A stretch of DNA of 64,000 nucleotides from Verrucomicrobiota bacterium (GTDB lineage Bacteria; Verrucomicrobiota; Verrucomicrobiia; Limisphaerales; Palsa-1400), in the NCBI GenBank assembly GCA_049510745.1, contig JBEKYR010000004.1, forward strand, positions 32,001 to 96,000, in the 5' to 3' direction. Under the pieces are notes generated by a model, which worked only from the letters and a program-made list of their open reading frames with translations, was not told where the DNA came from and searched no databases. The translations under genes and the position numbers were made by a program. Of the stretch, positions 19,431 to 54,165 are shown one piece after another. The first letter of the stretch is position 1; every line of letters begins with the position of its first letter.

Positions 19431-19619
19431 ATGAGTACGTTTGGTGAAATTGAAGCCGCGGTGAATGCTCTGCCGTTATCCGAGCAGAAGGCGTTGTTTG
19501 AGCATTTGACGCAACGCCTGCAAATCGGGGAGGACGTGAGGCGCCGCCTGCCGCTCGTTCCGGCGACCGGGCATCCGATCACGCAAGAGGAGATTGACGA
19601 TGCCCTCGACGCCGACTGA
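19431..19619 (+). CDS. Putative antitoxin
   Basis: 62 aa, MSTFGEIEAAVNALPLSEQ; overlaps downstream PIN gene. Confidence 0.7.
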   Translation: MSTFGEIEAAVNALPLSEQKALFEHLTQRLQIGEDVRRRLPLVPATGHPITQEEIDDALDAD

Positions 19620-20046
19620 AGCGCTGCTGGACGTGAACGTGGTTATCGCCGCAACCTTTGCAGACCACGTGAAGCACGGGATTGCGCGAGGATTCGTCAA
19701 TAGACTCGACCATTTTCACACCACGCCAATGACGCAGGGCGGCTTCTTGCGTTTCGCAACGCGCCCCTGGAAGGACCACCGCAAGGTTGAACAGCCGCCT
19801 CGTCTGAGCATGTCGGAGGCGCAGTCGAAGCTCATGGAATTTACCAACGCGGCCGGGCACGTGTTTCTTTCCGACGACGCCCAGTTCACGGAACTGGGTC
19901 TGCGTTCCATGCAAGGGCATCGGCAGTGGACCGATGCCTACCTGCTTCATCTCGCTCGCAAGCACGGGTTGTCGCTGGCTTCATTGGAAAGTCGAATGGC
20001 AAACCTTGATGATCCGAGCAAGCCCGTATTATTTGTGGTGATGTAG
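19600..20046 (+). CDS. VapC-family PIN toxin
   Basis: LLDVNVVIA..H..TQGGFLR..GHRQWTDAYLLHLA. Confidence 0.85.
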   Translation: MPSTPTEALLDVNVVIAATFADHVKHGIARGFVNRLDHFHTTPMTQGGFLRFATRPWKDHRKVEQPPRLSMSEAQSKLMEFTNAAGHVFLSDDAQFTELGLRSMQGHRQWTDAYLLHLARKHGLSLASLESRMANLDDPSKPVLFVVM

Positions 20047-20202
20047 CCACACAGCACGCGTCCCCCATTGGACAAAACCATCGGCGGCGCCTTTTTCCGA
20101 GGACCTCTTACGGTGCGATGCGTGAAGAACGCAAAACCATCCGCTCTTGGGGGACCCCATTTCCATCGTGACCCCATTTCCATTTCCCCTGAAGGCATAT
20201 TT

Positions 20203-20961
20203 TTACTGTGCCGTCCAGCCGCCATCGACGACGATGTCGGTGCCGGTAATGAAGGCGGCGGCGTCTGAACACAGATAAAGCGCCAGTTGGCCGATGTCTT
20301 TGGGATCGCCCCAACGGCCCAACGGAGTCGCCGCGAGGAACTGCCGATTCAGCTCCGGATTCTCCATGAGCGGGAGGTTCATTTCCGTGGCAAACGGGCC
20401 GGGACTGATGCCATTGACGGTGATGCCGTCCGGGGCCAGTTCCAAAGCCAGAGCGCGAATGAAGCCCAGCAAGCCAGCCTTGCTGGCGCAATAAGCGGTG
20501 CGGCCCGCAATGGCAACATGGCTCATCGTGGACGTCATGTTGATGATTCTCCCATAGCGCCGGCCTTTCATCTGCGGCACAAAATAACGGCACATCAGGA
20601 AGACGCCGGTCAGGTTGGTGTCCAAAACCTGCCGCCATTCAGTGGAAGAAAGTTCGATAAGTGGTTTGCGAATATTGATACCGGCGTTGTTGATGAGAAT
20701 GTGCGGGACACCGGCCTCTGTGACGACGAGTTCCGCGAGCCGGGCAATCTGGGCCTCATTCGTCACGTCCGCCGGATGCACCCAAGCCTTGACGCCAAAG
20801 GCATGTGCCGCGCGCGCGGTTTCCTCCAGTTGTTCCCGGTTGCGCGAGACAAGCACAACGTCCGCGCCCGCCTCCGCCAAAGTGGTGGCCATTGCCCGGC
20901 CCAGGCCTTTGCCGGCGCCGGTGATTAGGGCGATCTTTCCCGTCAAGTTACAAGTATTCAT
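20203..20961 (-). CDS. Short-chain dehydrogenase/reductase
   Basis: TGAGKGLG, NNAG, YCASK, DGG. Confidence 0.93.
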   Translation of the reverse strand: MNTCNLTGKIALITGAGKGLGRAMATTLAEAGADVVLVSRNREQLEETARAAHAFGVKAWVHPADVTNEAQIARLAELVVTEAGVPHILINNAGINIRKPLIELSSTEWRQVLDTNLTGVFLMCRYFVPQMKGRRYGRIINMTSTMSHVAIAGRTAYCASKAGLLGFIRALALELAPDGITVNGISPGPFATEMNLPLMENPELNRQFLAATPLGRWGDPKDIGQLALYLCSDAAAFITGTDIVVDGGWTAQ

Positions 20962-21123
20962 TGAAGTTTCGGGTTGATTATGCCGCCCAACTCTGTTTTT
21001 GCCAGCGCCAAACTGGCGGTTTTTGACTTTCTGGCTTGTTAATGCAAAATTGTGCGACGAATGAGCCGCAACGCTTTTAACAGAGAAGAAGCACGGGCGC
21101 GGCTGTCGCCCGCCAAAACCGGT

Positions 21124-21705
21124 TTATTCCCAGTCCCACTCCTCGAACAATTCCGAGATCGGGAAGCGGAAGCCGGGCAGGAGGTCTTCGCCCTCCAGAA
21201 AACCGCCGCTGCCAATCAGTTTGCGGTCGGTGAGGGAGCGGCAGACTTCCACGTGCCGGGCTTCGGGATCGATGATCCACGCCAGACGCGCGCCGCTGCT
21301 GAAGAAATCCTTCAATCGGTCGTCGATCTCGCCGCGCGTGTTGCCGGGCGAAAGAATCTCCACCGCCAGATCGGGCGCGCCGGGAAAGAAACGGCGCGTC
21401 GAGCGCCGGAATCCCAGGGACGCCAAACGCGCCCGGCTGACAAAGGAAATGTCCGGCGCGCGGCAGTTGCGATTGTTCATCCAGAAGCCGGTGCTGGAAT
21501 CCAGGACCGCCCCCAGGCGGCCGGATCGGACAAAAGTAAGAAGCGCCGCCGACAGCCGCGTGCAGATGTCGCCATGAAAGAAATCATTCTTGGGGCTCAT
21601 AACCAGTTCGCCATCGACAATTTCGTGGATGAAGCCGTCTTCGGGCAAAGCCTGCACCTCGGCCTCGGTCCAGAGTTTTTTCGGCGCTTCAACCACAGCG
21701 TTCAT
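21124..21705 (-). CDS. Uma2-family endonuclease
   Basis: EIVDGELVMSP..H..RAPDISF..APDLAVEILSP..WIIDP..LLPGF. Confidence 0.9.
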   Translation of the reverse strand: MNAVVEAPKKLWTEAEVQALPEDGFIHEIVDGELVMSPKNDFFHGDICTRLSAALLTFVRSGRLGAVLDSSTGFWMNNRNCRAPDISFVSRARLASLGFRRSTRRFFPGAPDLAVEILSPGNTRGEIDDRLKDFFSSGARLAWIIDPEARHVEVCRSLTDRKLIGSGGFLEGEDLLPGFRFPISELFEEWDWE

Positions 21706-21744
21706 GGAAGCATATTACGAGCGTTGGCGGCGGCTGTCGAGACT

Positions 21745-21800
21745 AACCGCGCCAGTCGCGCCAGTCGCTGAAGACTTCGTCGCGCATGAGGGTGGCGGCC
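21745..21800 (-). repeat. 56-bp direct repeat, copy 1 (displaced 3' end of the DUF2252-like gene)
   Basis: Identical to 22589-22644. Confidence 0.92.
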
Positions 21801-21826
21801 CGCGAATCCGGCCATCGCCAATAACA

Positions 21827-22258
21827 CTACGGCGTAACGCATTGGAATGCGCCCAGGACCGCAAAATCATTCGCGTTTGTCGTGAGCAATGAATTGATTC
21901 CAGCGCTCCGGTAAGTCGCGGCCAGCAGTGTGTCCAGTATTCGCTTTCGTCCCAGACCGTGGCCGCGATGCCAGACAAAGAATTGTGCCATCGCGGCGTC
22001 GCCGGGAATGGTGTGTGTTACCTCGTGGGCAGTCCACCATTTTTGCGCCAAATCGCGCGCCGCCTCCATGCTAAGTGGCGCGGCAAACCGCTTGGCGTCA
22101 GTGACCACGTGGATAAACTCGGCCAGCACTTGCGGAGCCAGCGCGAATTCGTCCCCTGCGGCAACAAGTGCGGCGATTTTCGCCCGCGCGGCTTGATGAC
22201 TGGTGTGCTCTACAACTTCGGCGGCGACCAGGAATCCGGTGTCGATCCCGTGATTCAC
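21827..22258 (-). CDS. VapC-family PIN toxin
   Basis: IDTGFLVA..PQVLAEFIHVVT..RILDTLLAAT..LLTTNANDF. Confidence 0.88.
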   Translation of the reverse strand: MNHGIDTGFLVAAEVVEHTSHQAARAKIAALVAAGDEFALAPQVLAEFIHVVTDAKRFAAPLSMEAARDLAQKWWTAHEVTHTIPGDAAMAQFFVWHRGHGLGRKRILDTLLAATYRSAGINSLLTTNANDFAVLGAFQCVTP

Positions 22259-23670: not shown

Positions 23671-26316
23671 TCAAGAATCGAGGGCGTCCAGAGCGGCGCG
23701 GGTCTGAGCGCGTTTGGACTGCCAATCGGCCAAGCGCTGCTCGTGCTCCTGCAAGACGGTCGCCGGCACTTTCCGGGCGAAGTCCGGGTTGGCCAGCTTG
23801 GTTTTCACCTTCTCGATTTCCGCGTCGATTTTTTGAAGTTCCCTGGTCAGGCGGGCTTTTTCCGCCTCGGCATTGACCAGGCCGGCCAGGGGGATGAATA
23901 GTTTTCCGCCGAAACCGGGATGAATCACCGGCTCGCCTTTGGAGGGCTGGTATTCCGGGCGATGCTCAATGCTTTCAGCCCCGGCCAGCAATTGGATCAC
24001 TTCCTTCTCCGCGGGATCGATGTCCGCGGGGGCGTGATAAACAATTTTGAGCCGCTGGCCGGCCGGGATGCGGTATTGGGCGCGGATGTTCCTGATGGCG
24101 ATGACCAGCTTCTGTCTGTCATCTATAAAACTGAGGACGTCTTCGGAAAGGAGGTAGTGGGCCTTGAAATCGGCGTCGAAGGGTTTGGGCCACGGCGCGA
24201 ACACAATCGTCCGGCCGCCCTGGTCGTCCGGCATGTCCTCGGCGTAACCCATCCCGTGCCACAATTCCTCCGTGATGAAAGGCAGGAAGGGATGGAACAG
24301 GCGCAGCGTGTGGGACAGAATAAAATCCATCACCGCCAGCGTGTTCTGTTTGCGCGCGGCGTCGGCGCCCTGCAGCACGGCCTTGCTCGCCTCGACATAC
24401 CAGTCGCAATACTCGCTCCAGAAGAAGCGGTAGAGAGTGGCGGCGGCGTCGCTGAATTTGTATTCGGCGAAGGCGGCGTCCAATTCGCGGATGGCGGCGT
24501 CGAGGCGGAGGAGAATCCAGCGGTCGTCGCGCGTGAGGAGGGGGGGCGCGATTTCGCCCTGGACCTGGCCGGCCTGGAGTTGGCGGAAGCGGCAGGCGTT
24601 CCAGAGTTTGTTGCAGAAATTGCGGCCCAGCTCGACCTGCTGTTCGTCATAAAGAATGTCCTGTCCCAGGGGCGCGGAGCGCATGACGCCAAAGCGCAGG
24701 GCGTCGGCGCCGTAACGGCCGATGAGGTCGAGGGGATCGGGCGAGTTGCCCAGGCTCTTGGACATTTTGCGGCCCTGCTTGTCACGAATAATTCCGGTGA
24801 AATAGACGTTGCGGAAAGGCGGCTCTCCCGTGAATTCGTAGCCCGCCATGATCATGCGCGCGACCCAGAAGAAAATGATGTCCGGGCCGGTGACCAGGTC
24901 GGTTGTAGGATAGAACTTTTGCAGCGTGTCCGTCTGGTCGGGCCAGCCCATGGTGGCGAAGGGCCAGAGCCAGGAGCTGAACCAGGTGTCGAGCACGTCC
25001 GGGTCCTGCCGCCAGCCGTCACCGGGAGAATCGATTTGACAGCGGGTCTCGCCGTCCTTGTACCAGACGGGCAGGCGATGGCCCCACCAGAGCTGGCGGG
25101 AGATGCACCAATCCTTGATGTTGACCATCCAATGGAGGTAGGTCTTGCTCCAGCGTTCCGGGTGGAAGCGAATCTGGCCGTTCTCGACCGCGGCGGTCGA
25201 GGCGGCGACCGACGGGTAGCGCAAAAACCATTGCTCGCTCAGATACGGTTCGATGGGCACGTGGCTGCGCTGACTGTGGCCGACGCGATGAACGTATTTT
25301 TCCGTCTTGAGCAGCAGGCCGAGGCTTTCCATTTTCGCCAGCACGGCTTTGCGCGCCGCCATGCGGTCCAATCCGGCAAACTCCGCGCCCGCCTCCTGGG
25401 TCATTGAGCCGTCGGGGGCGATGACGACCGTCAGGGGCAGATGATGGCGCAGCGCCATTTCGTAGTCGGCGGGATCGTGGGCGGGGGTGACTTTGACACA
25501 GCCGGCGCCGAATTTCGGATCGACCAATTCGTCGAGGATGATGGGAATGGGCTTGTTGCGGAGGGGCAGCAGGACCTTCTTGCCGCGCAAATTCTCATAA
25601 CGCGGGTCCTGCGGATGAACGGCCACGGCTTCGTCGCCCAGCATCGTTTCCGGCCGTGTCGTGGCCACGACGACAAAGCCCTCCTCGCCGACGAGGGGAT
25701 ATTTGAAGTACCACAAATGCCCGTGCTGCTCGACCATTTCGACCTCCTCGTCGGACAAGGCGGTGCGGGCGGCGGGGTCCCAATTGACCATGCGCTTGCC
25801 GCGATAGATCAAGGACTTGTTGTAGAGATCGACGAAGACGCCCTGGACGCAACGGCTGTAGGCGGGGTCCATGGTGAAGCGCTCGCGCGTCCAATCGCAG
25901 GAAGCGCCCAGCATGACAAGCTGCTGAATGATGATGCCGCCGTGCTTTTCCTTCCATTCCCAGACCTTCTCCAGAAGTTTTTCGCGGCCGAGGTCCTCGC
26001 GGGACTTCATCAGGCCCTGCTGGCGCAAATTCTTCTCGACAACGGCCTGGGTGGCGATGCCGGCGTGATCGGTGCCGGGCAGCCACAACACTTCAAACCC
26101 CCTCATGCGGGCCAGGCGGGCCAGGATGTCCTGGATGGTGTTGTTGAGGACGTGCCCGAGGGTGAGCACGCCGGTGACGTTGGGCGGCGGGATGACGATG
26201 GAATAGGCCGGCTTGGCCGAGCGCGGATGGGCGACAAAGCACTTTTGGTCGAGCCAAAACCGGCGCCATTTTTCCTCGACGGCGCGGGGTTCGTAGGCTT
26301 TTGGGATTTCGGACAT
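23671..26316 (-). CDS. valS: Valyl-tRNA synthetase
   Basis: PPPNVTG, GTDHAGIATQ, DWCISRQLWWGH, KMSKS, C-terminal coiled coil. Confidence 0.98.
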   Translation of the reverse strand: MSEIPKAYEPRAVEEKWRRFWLDQKCFVAHPRSAKPAYSIVIPPPNVTGVLTLGHVLNNTIQDILARLARMRGFEVLWLPGTDHAGIATQAVVEKNLRQQGLMKSREDLGREKLLEKVWEWKEKHGGIIIQQLVMLGASCDWTRERFTMDPAYSRCVQGVFVDLYNKSLIYRGKRMVNWDPAARTALSDEEVEMVEQHGHLWYFKYPLVGEEGFVVVATTRPETMLGDEAVAVHPQDPRYENLRGKKVLLPLRNKPIPIILDELVDPKFGAGCVKVTPAHDPADYEMALRHHLPLTVVIAPDGSMTQEAGAEFAGLDRMAARKAVLAKMESLGLLLKTEKYVHRVGHSQRSHVPIEPYLSEQWFLRYPSVAASTAAVENGQIRFHPERWSKTYLHWMVNIKDWCISRQLWWGHRLPVWYKDGETRCQIDSPGDGWRQDPDVLDTWFSSWLWPFATMGWPDQTDTLQKFYPTTDLVTGPDIIFFWVARMIMAGYEFTGEPPFRNVYFTGIIRDKQGRKMSKSLGNSPDPLDLIGRYGADALRFGVMRSAPLGQDILYDEQQVELGRNFCNKLWNACRFRQLQAGQVQGEIAPPLLTRDDRWILLRLDAAIRELDAAFAEYKFSDAAATLYRFFWSEYCDWYVEASKAVLQGADAARKQNTLAVMDFILSHTLRLFHPFLPFITEELWHGMGYAEDMPDDQGGRTIVFAPWPKPFDADFKAHYLLSEDVLSFIDDRQKLVIAIRNIRAQYRIPAGQRLKIVYHAPADIDPAEKEVIQLLAGAESIEHRPEYQPSKGEPVIHPGFGGKLFIPLAGLVNAEAEKARLTRELQKIDAEIEKVKTKLANPDFARKVPATVLQEHEQRLADWQSKRAQTRAALDALDS

Positions 26317-26374
26317 AAATTTTCAACCACGAATGGACACAGACATATATTTTCAACCACGGATGGACACGGAT

Positions 26375-26539
26375 TCACACGGATAAAGCCAGTGAGTTCT
26401 CATATATTTTTTCGTTAAGTCCGTGCCCGATCTCGTTAAGCACCTCGAACGCAAAGCCAATAAGTTTCTCCGTTTCGGCTTTGAAAATCAATTTTGATTC
26501 GCGGCTGCTGCTTAAGTTCTGTCTTTCATCCGTGTCCAT
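26375..26539 (-). pseudogene. Truncated GxxExxY copy (54 aa)
   Basis: MDTDERQNLSSSRESKLIFKAETEKLIGFAFEVLNEIGHGLNEKIYENSLALSV*. Confidence 0.85.
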
Positions 26540-26635
26540 CTGTGTCTATCCGTGGTTAAATTGTTTTTTTCATCAGGCGATATTCCATGACATAAATTTT
26601 CAACCACGGATGGACACGGGTTCACACGGATAAAG

Positions 26636-27046
26636 CTAGAGCACCACACGCTCCCATTCCATTCGGGCGCGCTTAAAATTCACGATTAACCCCACCCGCA
26701 ATTTGGAGATGCGGAGATAATTCAGCATCTGGCCGCGTTCATGGTCGGTAATGCAATCAATGACTTTGGTGTCCACAATCACCGAACCAAAAGCGATAAG
26801 GTCTGGAATGAATTCGCCGACTTGAACACCCCGGAAACACACCGGGAATCTTCTTTGCTGGTCGAACGCAATCTCGTTTTGCTTGAACAAAACCACCAGT
26901 GAGTTCTCATATATTTTTTCGATAAGTCCGTGCCCGATCTCGTTAAGCACCTCGAACGCAAAACCAATAAGCTTCTCCGTTTCGGCTTTGAGAATCAGTT
27001 TTGATTCCCGGCTGCCGCTCAAGTCCGGTCTTTCATCCGTGTCCAT
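26636..27046 (-). CDS. GxxExxY protein (predicted PD-(D/E)XK-like nuclease)
   Basis: GHGLIEKIYEN motif; GEFIPDLI..VIVDTK..QMLNYL..GLIVNF. Confidence 0.92.
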   Translation of the reverse strand: MDTDERPDLSGSRESKLILKAETEKLIGFAFEVLNEIGHGLIEKIYENSLVVLFKQNEIAFDQQRRFPVCFRGVQVGEFIPDLIAFGSVIVDTKVIDCITDHERGQMLNYLRISKLRVGLIVNFKRARMEWERVVL

Positions 27047-27105
27047 CTGTGTCTATCCGTGGTTAAATTATTCTTTCATCAGGCGATACTCCGTGACATA
27101 AATTT

Positions 27106-27291
27106 TCAACCACGGATGGACACGGATTCACACGGATAAAACCGGTGAGTTCTCATATATTCTTCGTTAAGTCCGTGCCCAATCTCGTTAAGCACCTCGA
27201 ACGCAAAACCGATAAGTTTTTCCGTTTCGGCTTTGAGAATCAGTTTTGATTCCCGGCTGCTGCTCAAGTCCGGTCTTTCACCCGTGTCCAT
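27106..27291 (-). pseudogene. Truncated, frameshifted GxxExxY copy
   Basis: Matches the N-terminus to GHGLNEE, then a 1-nt deletion. Confidence 0.85.
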
Positions 27292-27373
27292 CTGTGTCTA
27301 TCCGTGGTTAAATTATTTTTTCCATCAGGCGATACTCCGTGACATAAATTTTCAACCACGGATGGACACGGAT

Positions 27374-27538
27374 TCACACGGATAAAACCGGTGAGTTCTC
27401 ATATATTTTTTCGTTAAGTCCGTGCCCGATCTCGTTAAGCACCTCGAACGCAAAGCCAATAAGTTTCTCCGTTTCGGCTTTGAGAATCAATTTTGATTCG
27501 CGGCTGCTGCTCAAGTTCGGTCTTTCATCCGTGTCCAT
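27374..27538 (-). pseudogene. Truncated GxxExxY copy (54 aa)
   Basis: MDTDERPNLSSSRESKLILKAETEKLIGFAFEVLNEIGHGLNEKIYENSPVLSV*. Confidence 0.85.
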
Positions 27539-27559
27539 CTGTGTCTATCCGTGGTTAAA

Positions 27560-29119
27560 TTATTTTTTCATCAGGCGATATTCCATGGAATCGACCAGGG
27601 CCTGCAAACTGGCCTCGATGATGTTGGCGCTGACGCCGACGGTGCCCCATTCCTCGGTCCCGTCGCTGGACTGAATGAGGACGCGGGTCTTGGCGGCGGT
27701 GCCGGCGGTCGAGTCAAGGATACGGACCTTGTAATCGGTCAGGCGAATGCGCTTGAGCTGCGGATAGAAACCGGCCAGGGCGGCACGCAAGGCGGAGTCC
27801 AGGGCGTTGATCGGGCCGTCGCCCTCGGCGACGGTGTGGGCGGACTTGCCCTCGACCCGGACCTTGACCGTGGCCTCGCAAATCGAGGAGCCGCCGTCGC
27901 GCCGCATCGAGACGTGATAGACGGTCACCTCGAACGGCAGCGTTTGGTGATGGAGTATCCTGTGGATGAGAACGGCGAGCGAGCCGCCCGCGGCCTCGAA
28001 TTCGTAGCCCTGGTGTTCGAGGGTTTTGACGCGTGCCAGGATTTCCTTCAACTCCGGTGCGTCGTCGGCCAGGCGGATGCCCAACTCGCGGGCCTTGAGG
28101 AGAATGTTGCTGCGGCCGGCCAGATCGCTGATGAGCACGTTGCGCGCATTGCCGACGGATGCCGGGTCGATGTGCTCGTAACTGCCAAAAATTTTCTGGA
28201 CCGCGTTGACGTGCATGCCGGCCTTGTGCGAAAAGGCGGCCGAGCCGACCCACGGCTGGCGCGGGCTGTGGCGGAAGTTGGCGATCTCATCCACGAATTG
28301 CGACAGGTCCTTGAGCAGCGGCAGCGAAGCGGCCGGCACGCACGTTTTGCGCAATTTGAACGCGATGTTAGGAATGACGCTGGTCAGGTTGCAATTGCCG
28401 GTGCGTTCGCCGTAACCATTGATGGTGCCCTGCACCTGCGTGGCGCCCGCCTCCAGCGCCGCCAGGGCGTTGGCCACGCCGAGGCCGATGTCATCGTGAG
28501 TGTGGATGCCGATGCGCCCCTTGAGCGCGGCGCGGGCGGCGCGGGTGATGGCGGCGATTTCGCCGGGCAACCTGCCGCCGTTGGTGTCGCACAAAACGAC
28601 CCTGTCGGCGCCGGCGTTTTCCGCGGCCTGCCAGGTGGCCAGCGCGTAGGCGTTGTTGTCCTTGAACCCGTCGAAAGCGTGCTCGGCGTCATAAACGACG
28701 AATTTTCCGTGCTGCTTGAGGAACCGGACCGTGTCGGCGATCATGGCCAGGTTTTCATCCGGCGTGGTGCGGAGGACTTTGCGGACATGCAACAGCCAGG
28801 TCTTGCCGAAAATAGTGACGACAGGCGTATGCGCTTCGAGGAGGAGCCGGACCTGGTCATCGGCGGCCACGGCGACATCCTTGCGGCGGGTCGAGCCGAA
28901 GGCGGCCAGTTGGGCGCGCCTGAATTTTTTGCGTTTGGCCTCGTGGAAAAACTCGATGTCCTTGGGATTGGAGCCGGGCCAGCCGCCCTCGATGAAATGG
29001 ACGCCGAAGGCATCGAGCCGTTCGGCGATGCGCAACTTATCGGTGAGGGAAAAGTTAACGCCTTCGCCCTGGCTGCCATCGCGCAAGGTCGTATCGTAGA
29101 TTTCGACATCGGGTTTCAT
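27560..29119 (-). CDS. cimA: Citramalate synthase
   Basis: YDTTLRDGSQGEG, IEGGWPGSNPKD, YDAEHAFDG, GYGERTGN, WGTVGVSANIIEASLQALVDS; start chosen at MKPDVEI. Confidence 0.93.
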   Translation of the reverse strand: MKPDVEIYDTTLRDGSQGEGVNFSLTDKLRIAERLDAFGVHFIEGGWPGSNPKDIEFFHEAKRKKFRRAQLAAFGSTRRKDVAVAADDQVRLLLEAHTPVVTIFGKTWLLHVRKVLRTTPDENLAMIADTVRFLKQHGKFVVYDAEHAFDGFKDNNAYALATWQAAENAGADRVVLCDTNGGRLPGEIAAITRAARAALKGRIGIHTHDDIGLGVANALAALEAGATQVQGTINGYGERTGNCNLTSVIPNIAFKLRKTCVPAASLPLLKDLSQFVDEIANFRHSPRQPWVGSAAFSHKAGMHVNAVQKIFGSYEHIDPASVGNARNVLISDLAGRSNILLKARELGIRLADDAPELKEILARVKTLEHQGYEFEAAGGSLAVLIHRILHHQTLPFEVTVYHVSMRRDGGSSICEATVKVRVEGKSAHTVAEGDGPINALDSALRAALAGFYPQLKRIRLTDYKVRILDSTAGTAAKTRVLIQSSDGTEEWGTVGVSANIIEASLQALVDSMEYRLMKK

Positions 29120-53863: not shown

Positions 53864-54026
53864 GAAAACCGAGTCAACCGCGAAATACTCGCGAAGTTTG
53901 GAATAGGCCCATCTGGATGGTCTTATCCGTGTTAATCCGTGTCCATCCGTGGTTGAAAAAAATTGGGTTGCGGCTGCCGCGCTGAGTATTTCGCATATTT
54001 CGCGGTTTTAAAAAATCCTCAGGCGA
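53864..54026. repeat. Dispersed CGCGAAA-type element, copy 2, with a nested CACGGAT-type arm
   Basis: Ends gaaaaccgagtcaaccgcgaaatac and tatttcgcatatttcgcggtttt(a6)tcct..ggcga match the reverse complement of 29214-29310; interior atccgtgttaatccgtgtccatccgtggttgaaa matches the GxxExxY cassette arm. Confidence 0.85.
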
Positions 54027-54089: not shown

Positions 54090-54165
54090 GCCAGTTTAGC
54101 TCAGTTGGTAGAGCAATGCTTTCGTAAAGCATGGGTCGCCGGTTCAAGTCCGGCAACTGGCTCCA
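54090..54165 (+). tRNA. tRNA-Thr(CGT)
   Basis: 76-nt cloverleaf GCCAGTT..AACTGGC-T-CCA; anticodon arm ATGCT-TTCGTAA-AGCAT; GGTTCAAGTCC T-arm. Confidence 0.96.

Follow-up and report, generated by a model that had tools for sequence, protein, structure and literature searches.

Stacked cassettes with a predicted GxxExxY nuclease gene between cimA and valS in a Verrucomicrobiota genome

Introduction

Why should a small predicted nuclease gene stand in four diverged and mostly broken copies directly in front of valS? The question is raised by a stretch of 64,000 nucleotides (the window) from a Verrucomicrobiota bacterium (assembly GCA_049510745.1, contig JBEKYR010000004.1, positions 32,001 to 96,000), in which four units built around a GxxExxY gene lie between cimA and valS. 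The host genome, G000, is a short-read metagenome bin of 85 contigs. A reading made from the letters alone (the sequence-only reading) had proposed that the gene and its inverted repeats form a minimal mobile or self-amplifying element with autonomous and non-autonomous copies. The account favoured here, with moderate confidence, is that a selfish cassette of two 3 x 10-bp arms and a predicted Cas4-like nuclease gene was gained at the cimA-valS junction and then copied in place, and that mis-repair and unequal crossover gave four units, three of which lack the catalytic half.

Architecture of the array

On the minus strand, cimA is followed by four direct head-to-tail units and then by valS (Table 1). 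The units start at 27586, 27340, 27094 and 26588, are 246, 246, 506 and about 247 nt long, and are 91.9-96.8% identical to one another, confirming the four diverged units and the coordinates proposed for them. Each begins with 30 nt outside the left arm, made of 27 nt of cimA tail (its last 8 codons and stop; TIGR00977) and TTT, and continues with two arms of 30 nt each, left and right, on either side of gene sequence; its final 13 nt have the first five bases of valS at their end. The sequence-only reading had rightly described the copied cimA 3' end, the two inverted arms with the start codon supplied by the left one, and the closing valS leader plus ATGTC. The basic cassette is about 465 bp and comprises the left arm containing the start codon, the GxxExxY gene and the right arm. 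Downstream of the array valS appears to keep its own native leader, and no sigma-70-like promoter was found in the array.

The full 136-aa gene (TIGR04256/PF13366) is present in unit 2 alone, and the other three units share one deletion point, both as had been read: units 1, 3 and 4 lack an identical 260 nt (26636-26895 in unit 2), from codon 51 to the stop. The arms had been given a period of 9 bp, which has to be corrected, since all 8 arms are 10-bp periodic, with a self-match of 0.65-0.75 at lag 10 versus just 0.14-0.19 at lag 9. The TC(C) microhomology suggested for the internal junctions holds in part. A short overlap does exist, but at the large junctions the strict overlap between the valS head and the cimA tail is one C, and TCC is obtained only given the loss of one C. 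A further 30-bp duplication at 26312-26341, absent from the sequence-only reading, fits a TCCG overlap and has the same valS breakpoint as the large units.

Table 1. Positions of the array components and flanking genes in the window
Feature	Position	Strand	Basis
cimA, citramalate synthase, a host gene whose final 27 nt begin unit 4	27560..29119	-	TIGR00977 708.9 bits, cut-off 450
Unit 4: native cimA tail, left arm, GxxExxY codons 1-50, deletion, right arm, valS leader + ATGTC	27341..27586	-	
Unit 4 left arm, 3 x 10 bp, start codon at 27538	27527..27556	-	Periodicity
Unit 4 right arm	27354..27383	+	Periodicity
Unit 3: deleted and frameshifted, hybrid	27095..27340	-	Variant sharing
Unit 3 left arm	27280..27309	-	Periodicity
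Unit 3 right arm	27108..27137	+	Periodicity
Unit 2: complete cassette with captured flanks	26589..27094	-	
Unit 2 left arm, contains ATG at 27046	27035..27064	-	Periodicity
GxxExxY gene, 136 aa, predicted PD-(D/E)XK fold	26636..27046	-	TIGR04256 117.1 bits; PF13366
260 nt absent from units 1, 3 and 4; encodes D82, D92, K94	26636..26895	-	Unit comparison
Unit 2 right arm	26602..26631	+	Periodicity
Unit 1: deleted copy, nearest to unit 4 (96.8%)	26342..26588	-	Unit comparison
Unit 1 left arm	26528..26557	-	Periodicity
Unit 1 right arm	26355..26384	+	Periodicity
Short tandem duplication (30 bp) of the outer right-arm half, the valS leader and ATGTC	26312..26341	-	TRF period 30
valS, valine-tRNA ligase, single copy in assembly	23671..26316	-	NF004349/TIGR00422; tblastn of genome

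Positions 25900-28000 were compared with contigs from four peat-metagenome runs, each belonging to a different study (4 of 24 listed runs; the assembly may derive from one of the four). In each run, contigs private to single units matched with 0 differences, at depths of 12.7-25.2 versus 15-16.1 in the single-copy flanks (run X1), 16.4-26.2 versus 23.8-24 (X2), 14.2-18.5 versus 13.4 (X3) and 4.5-5.8 versus 5.4 (X5). A stretch common to two units reached about twice the single-copy depth (46.8 in X2, 23.5 in X3), and the unit 4/3 junction is bridged by one X5 contig with 48 and 31 letters. As the unit-private depth is about 1x, the units are not alleles of one site, which would split 1x between them. 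The array is real and not an assembly artefact, and the earlier argument against a simple artefact is borne out by read depth in the four runs. Depth over unit 1 exceeds that of the flanks in X1 and X3, and in X2 a bin of unit 3 is uncovered; copy-number variation is not deduced from this, because coverage holes occur in valS too. A metagenome scan for strain variants gave 1 matching contig (L105), which ends inside unit 4.

Just downstream of valS (window 19594-22258) lie two PIN/VapC-like genes and a Uma2-family nuclease gene.

The cassette across genomes

The locus set comprised 166 fetched loci, including two stretches of G000 and some places fetched twice. Of 175 profile hits, 26 were short or motif-less, 9 were duplicates and 2 lay at an edge; the remaining 138 are full-length genes. 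With an inverted repeat scoring at least 12 taken as the arm criterion, arms flank 117 of the 138 full-length loci, and in the first set they were present at 60/61 loci versus 1/150 control long open reading frames of G000, in keeping with the enrichment that the sequence-only reading had predicted. The arm period is 10 at 89 loci, 9 at 10, 8 at 3 and 7 at 1. A strict 10-bp pattern, written from the window arms, fits 61 loci. Among these strict cassettes, a co-oriented ATG lies 5-31 nt past the right arm in 57 (mirror control 0/61), the start codon of the gene falls within the left arm in 58, and an upstream stop codon is at most 45 nt away in 50, a count without control. Gene and arms form one unit that lacks a promoter of its own and follows a stop codon, with a co-oriented start codon close downstream.

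The gene downstream of the cassette is valS at 19 loci (window included), a thrS-type synthetase at 23 and an ABC ATPase, which we take to be sufC-like, at 10. Other loci have an oligopeptide ABC ATPase, purA, dxs, BMC or dehydrogenase E2 in this position. Proteins 82-85% identical to that of the window occur at valS, at the sufC-like site and at dxs. The thrS-site cassettes (L125, L127, L134, L137-L190; 23 loci) make up a sister clade with a second aminoacyl-tRNA synthetase as target. A tRNA guessed to lie upstream of them was found in none of 14 loci.

Arm type follows the protein tree with 11 changes versus 33 when shuffled, on quick and FastTree trees built from few columns. The expected co-variation was thus found, and linkage alone would already give it. 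Between left and right arms, the core letters agree in 1466 of 1525 cells and the five spacer positions in 145 of 305, the latter no higher than in shuffles, and A-C mismatches (60) are as common as G-U pairs (56). High core agreement, free spacers and no preference for G-U suggest that the arms are putative repeated protein-binding sites one helical turn apart, not a selected stem; this reading is tempered by the coding role of the left arm.

Twelve gene-less arms with at most 4 mismatches to the core of the window right arm are dispersed elsewhere in G000 (contigs C1, C2, C4, C7, C10, C13, C20, C35, C54 and C60), one of them at window 53925-53953 beside tRNA-Thr (54090-54165). Most are part of a composite repeat that also contains a small GC-rich hairpin and an arm of another type. 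They are better candidates for non-autonomous copies than the deleted array units, which had been taken for mobile non-autonomous copies; the latter carry host flanks and lie head to tail, and unit 3 is a hybrid, so that this part of the sequence-only reading is not supported.

GxxExxY genes were detected in 26 of the 31 genomes of this family, and those of this clade in 96 of the 401 genomes of the order, a tally that includes the unpublished G334, a genome that no other result here depends on. A plasmid search returned 7 distant records, and none was found in the 50,697 phage records searched with this query. The proposal of a mobile or self-amplifying element is supported in one respect and not in another: a gene-arm unit is present in many genomes and changes site at more than 80% protein identity, but stacking as its normal route of spread finds no support, the 18 other valS-site cassettes being single.

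The GxxExxY protein

The unit-2 protein belongs to the GxxExxY/PDDEXK_3 family (TIGR04256, 117.1 versus 35 bits; PF13366, 108.9 versus 22), and the window protein matched these two families only, with no match to DDE, HUH, serine or tyrosine recombinases. Its structure model has a predicted local distance difference test score (pLDDT) of 91.9. The best fold match is the Cas4 protein SSO0001 (PDB 4ic1; Foldseek E 8.7e-4; VIA Z 7.8, root-mean-square deviation 2.8, 97 aligned), and other PD-(D/E)XK folds come next after Cas4 and R.SwaI. A search of solved structures by sequence gave nothing below E 0.84. G40, E43, Y46, D82, K94, N123, F124 and R133 do not vary among 110 aligned relatives and are all intact in unit 2, and the motifs E...D...D-x-K and QxxxY are present. 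Unit 2 is altered at otherwise conserved sites (N42I, R98C, T114S, L129M), and both of its two Cys are rare in relatives. The product is a predicted PD-(D/E)XK nuclease. The function of PDDEXK_3 is given as 'Unknown', with multiple transfers (PMC3424549). Purifying selection is indicated by 78-86% amino acid identity to the closest relatives with fourfold sites at 36-56%; high protein identity over saturated fourfold sites means that the protein has been kept by selection and that the transfer is not fresh.

Probable gain at the cimA-valS junction

The junction was surveyed at 29 relatives' loci, of which 23 show both junction ends. None of these 23 has a GxxExxY gene there, so that the empty sites sought in relatives do exist: 16 have a gap of 0-54 nt, 6 a small gene pair or its remains, and 1 a different gene together with a decayed pair of arms. 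A search of 30 other genomes of the family, with at most 20 candidates scored in each, gave no close copy. In FastTree trees built from few columns, G000 groups with empty genomes of the same genus for valS (98) and cimA (97), in clades otherwise free of the cassette and apart from 17 (16 for cimA) other filled genomes. In each window of 30 nt, as far as the junction, the flanks are nearer to those of empty relatives, a comparison that would miss co-converted tracts that are old or shorter than 30 nt. Nothing obvious as a target duplication was seen in 18 filled and 11 empty junctions, which include no close filled/empty pair. The host genes nest among empty relatives, while members of the same protein clade are found before valS in distant families. 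This points to a likely horizontal gain of the cassette at a favoured site, not accompanied by a long co-converted flank.

Several observations concern the junction itself. The small pair, RHH-PIN-like toxin-antitoxin by eye, or its remains were seen in L013, L019, L021, L022, L025 and L026; in L135 an RHH-PIN-like pair comes after the cassette. L073 and L027 (G032) apparently have the same gene upstream of valS, with a similar C-terminus by eye; a full cassette stands in L073 and a decayed pair of arms alone in G032, which likely shows loss in progress. The valS of G001 (L004) is 91% identical to that of G000 and its cimA 69%, and in G012 (L011) and G014 (L010) cimA is about 80% and valS 64-68% identical. 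To judge from sequence comparison, the cimA-valS junction is a boundary of gene replacement.

Origin of the four units

The 5' part of unit 3 has six variants in common with unit 2, and its deletion junction has two in common with unit 4. This pattern marks unit 3 as a unit-2/unit-4 hybrid, as unequal crossover in a 4-2-1 array would give. Since the three large junctions are identical, one primary duplication suffices. Adenine-biased mutagenesis by a reverse transcriptase was rejected, as the changes between units are mixed transitions, and so was circle re-integration as the normal route, whose predicted junction remnant is absent from 17 other filled cimA-valS junctions. The stack probably arose by ordinary local duplication after the cassette had been gained.

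More than one gene copy was found in 4 of the 166 fetched loci (window, L193, L060 and L038), and each of the 18 other cassettes at valS stands alone. Duplication that takes in flanks and deletion within a cassette are therefore recurrent events, though uncommon ones. In G022:C231 (L193/L196 1-610), two or more deleted units of the 9-bp type, 93% identical, stand at a contig end with arm-to-arm joins within 23 nt, and this stack is independent of the window array. G008:C199 (L197) has a tandem 9-bp-type cassette copy at 83% identity. In G000 itself, a second GxxExxY cassette with 9-bp arms (C6:175900-177400, L039) has a gene-less duplicate, flanks included, about 850 bp upstream. Further 9-bp-type cassettes, tandem or internally deleted and with both arms kept, were noted in L201 and L202, the latter with a left arm expanded to about eight repeats.

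The favoured reading may be put as a series of steps, the first being the promoterless placement already described. The protein would bind three 7-nt cores per arm, one helical turn apart, and cut or nick the DNA, and host repair would write the cassette into a short A/T-rich stretch before a start codon. This clade would prefer valS, and such writing-in would be the way the cassette spreads. At the window locus, a single illegitimate event would have duplicated the cassette in tandem, breaking 30 nt beyond the left arm and 13 nt beyond the right, and was probably favoured by the arms folding together. One 260-nt deletion would have come next, and then the unequal crossover that produced unit 3. 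The deleted units would be dead by-products, and the array would have no function of its own. A bolder version, to be held only tentatively, is that GxxExxY cassettes are minimal mobile elements whose sole enzyme, the 136-aa PD-(D/E)XK nuclease, binds the helically phased arms and inserts precisely before start codons. Across families they would come back to one and the same junction at an essential gene and leave the neighbouring genes behind, and the recurrent breakpoint 13 nt outside the right arm would mark the cut site.

Several points weigh against the favoured reading. Arm binding, cleavage and self-mobility are inferred, no excision or fresh insertion was seen, and the Cas4 fold match is middling, its Z of 7.8 being tied with R.SwaI. 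The order of the units is that given by the assembly, as the array is not covered by any single contig. Nearly all sampled loci are from Verrucomicrobiota, judged by record titles, with this clade over-represented, and they include no close filled/empty pair that would fix the insertion boundary and any target duplication. Because fourfold sites are saturated, the transfer is not recent, and recent transfer from a sampled donor was rejected. Ancient presence followed by repeated loss may instead account for the pattern. On the valS tree, with 3 changes, the majority of filled valS sites belong to a single host clade, so that long vertical inheritance is also common. Finally, 9 of 16 substitutions in codons 1-50 of the units are synonymous (one column ambiguous; read by eye), where a fraction of 0.27-0.33 is expected with transition bias (P 0.012-0.05). 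This excess exceeds simple neutral decay, and some of the divergence may date from intact alleles.

Among the rival explanations, amplification driven by the nuclease survives best, although it is unlikely. The intact protein would cut at a fixed short distance outside the arms, and repair would yield tandem copies. Phage SegB offers a precedent for segment amplification in the available portion of PMC13096335. Two different duplications have a common end at one base of valS, 13 nt beyond the right arm, and the independent G022 stack, the G008 tandem copy and the gene-less duplicate on G000:C6 point the same way. The rarity of multiple copies (4/166 loci, with the 18 other valS-site cassettes single) argues against it. 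Slippage beside an inverted repeat can give short-overlap breakpoints without an enzyme, and the short overlaps at both breakpoints are explicable in this way.

Less probable again is a stacking of alleles, in which intact cassettes of related strains recombined into the array after the first duplication, so that part of the 3-8% divergence would date to the time when the copies were working genes. The synonymous excess (9/16) is consistent with this, as are the private substitutions of the broken unit 3, 4/5 of which are synonymous (read by eye), and the foreign alleles for which cimA and valS were swapped at the junction in G001, G012 and G014. The numbers are small, however, with one ambiguous column, the three large junctions are identical, and the cimA contigs of the four runs show no differences, so that no allele pool is visible today.

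Slightly more doubtful is an element acting at the RNA level, whose arms would pair in the operon mRNA and loop out the nuclease gene in the manner of 23S rRNA intervening sequences, so that the cimA stop meets the valS start; the protein may process the looped RNA. The arms do pair in the predicted fold of unit 2 (z -2.3), the operon polarity is strict, the stem would conceal the start codon, and the array lacks a sigma-70-like promoter. Yet five of the 30 arm positions are free, without selection for pairing or for G-U over A-C, no Rfam family was found at threshold (4 chance-level hits), and there is no rRNA location. That the assembler chained strain variants of one cassette is very improbable: the short-read bin, the want of an array-spanning contig and the end of L105 inside unit 4 would allow it, but in each of the four runs, all from different studies, the private contigs have about the full single-copy depth instead of a fraction of it, and one junction is bridged.

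Comparison with known systems

REPtrons and TIRtrons, which go with REPINs and encode the HUH transposases RAYT and TIRYT, are the closest in plan as far as the accessible text of PMC3733652 and PMC3116915 goes. They too have a small enzyme gene within its own inverted repeats, dispersed gene-less repeats and a repeat type tied to the enzyme clade, and tandem REPIN clusters including flanking DNA are known (PMC3116915, in part). The enzyme of the present cassette is, in contrast, a predicted PD-(D/E)XK nuclease and not HUH-Y1, its arms are 3 x 10-bp direct repeats and not GTAG/CGTC palindromes, its left arm gives the start codon, and its position before a start codon is strict. The free-standing homing endonucleases seg and mob of T-even phages, in the parts available of PMC2988022 and PMC10055350, likewise are promoterless nuclease genes between conserved, often essential genes, patchy at a fixed site and adjoining boundaries of gene exchange, and they can drive tandem amplification (SegB, PMC13096335, in part). 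Unlike them, the cassette is chromosomal, with none found by this query in the phage records, and has terminal arms; its protein (136 aa) has no separate DNA-binding domain. Co-converted flanks, typical of homing, were not seen in the 30-nt windows.

Insertion sequence (IS) elements and miniature inverted-repeat transposable elements (MITEs) have terminal inverted repeats and one open reading frame, and their internally deleted derivatives keep both ends. The cassette resembles them in its terminal inverted repeats around one reading frame and in deleted derivatives with both ends. It differs from them in lacking a DDE, HUH, serine or tyrosine recombinase match, in its size of 0.47 kb and in a single, long-retained copy per site; no target duplication was obvious in the filled and empty junctions compared. 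The protein resembles Cas4/RecB-like nucleases in its best fold match, SSO0001, and in the E...D...D-x-K and QxxxY motifs. Cas4 has four conserved cysteines for an iron-sulfur cluster, whereas the cassette protein has no such conserved cysteines and no CRISPR context, and its fold match is tied with restriction-enzyme folds. Intervening sequences of 23S rRNA lie in rRNA within a paired stem; the cassette lies between cimA and valS, and its arm spacer positions are unpaired.

Significance

A literature search, which left supplements and subscription papers outside, found no description of arms around GxxExxY genes, and the mention of GxxExxY in the accessible part of 10.1101/2021.01.26.428298 is incidental. 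The cassette belongs to a widespread family of likely selfish DNA that is apparently undescribed. By analogy it would be related in design to REPtrons and free-standing homing nucleases, and the stack, an ordinary derivative, is itself of minor importance. GxxExxY genes are common yet without known function. The locus offers a concrete substrate (the arms and the valS leader), natural dead controls and two breakpoints that predict cut positions. Were the protein shown to move its own cassette, it would count among the smallest mobility enzymes and stand apart from the DDE, HUH and recombinase classes.

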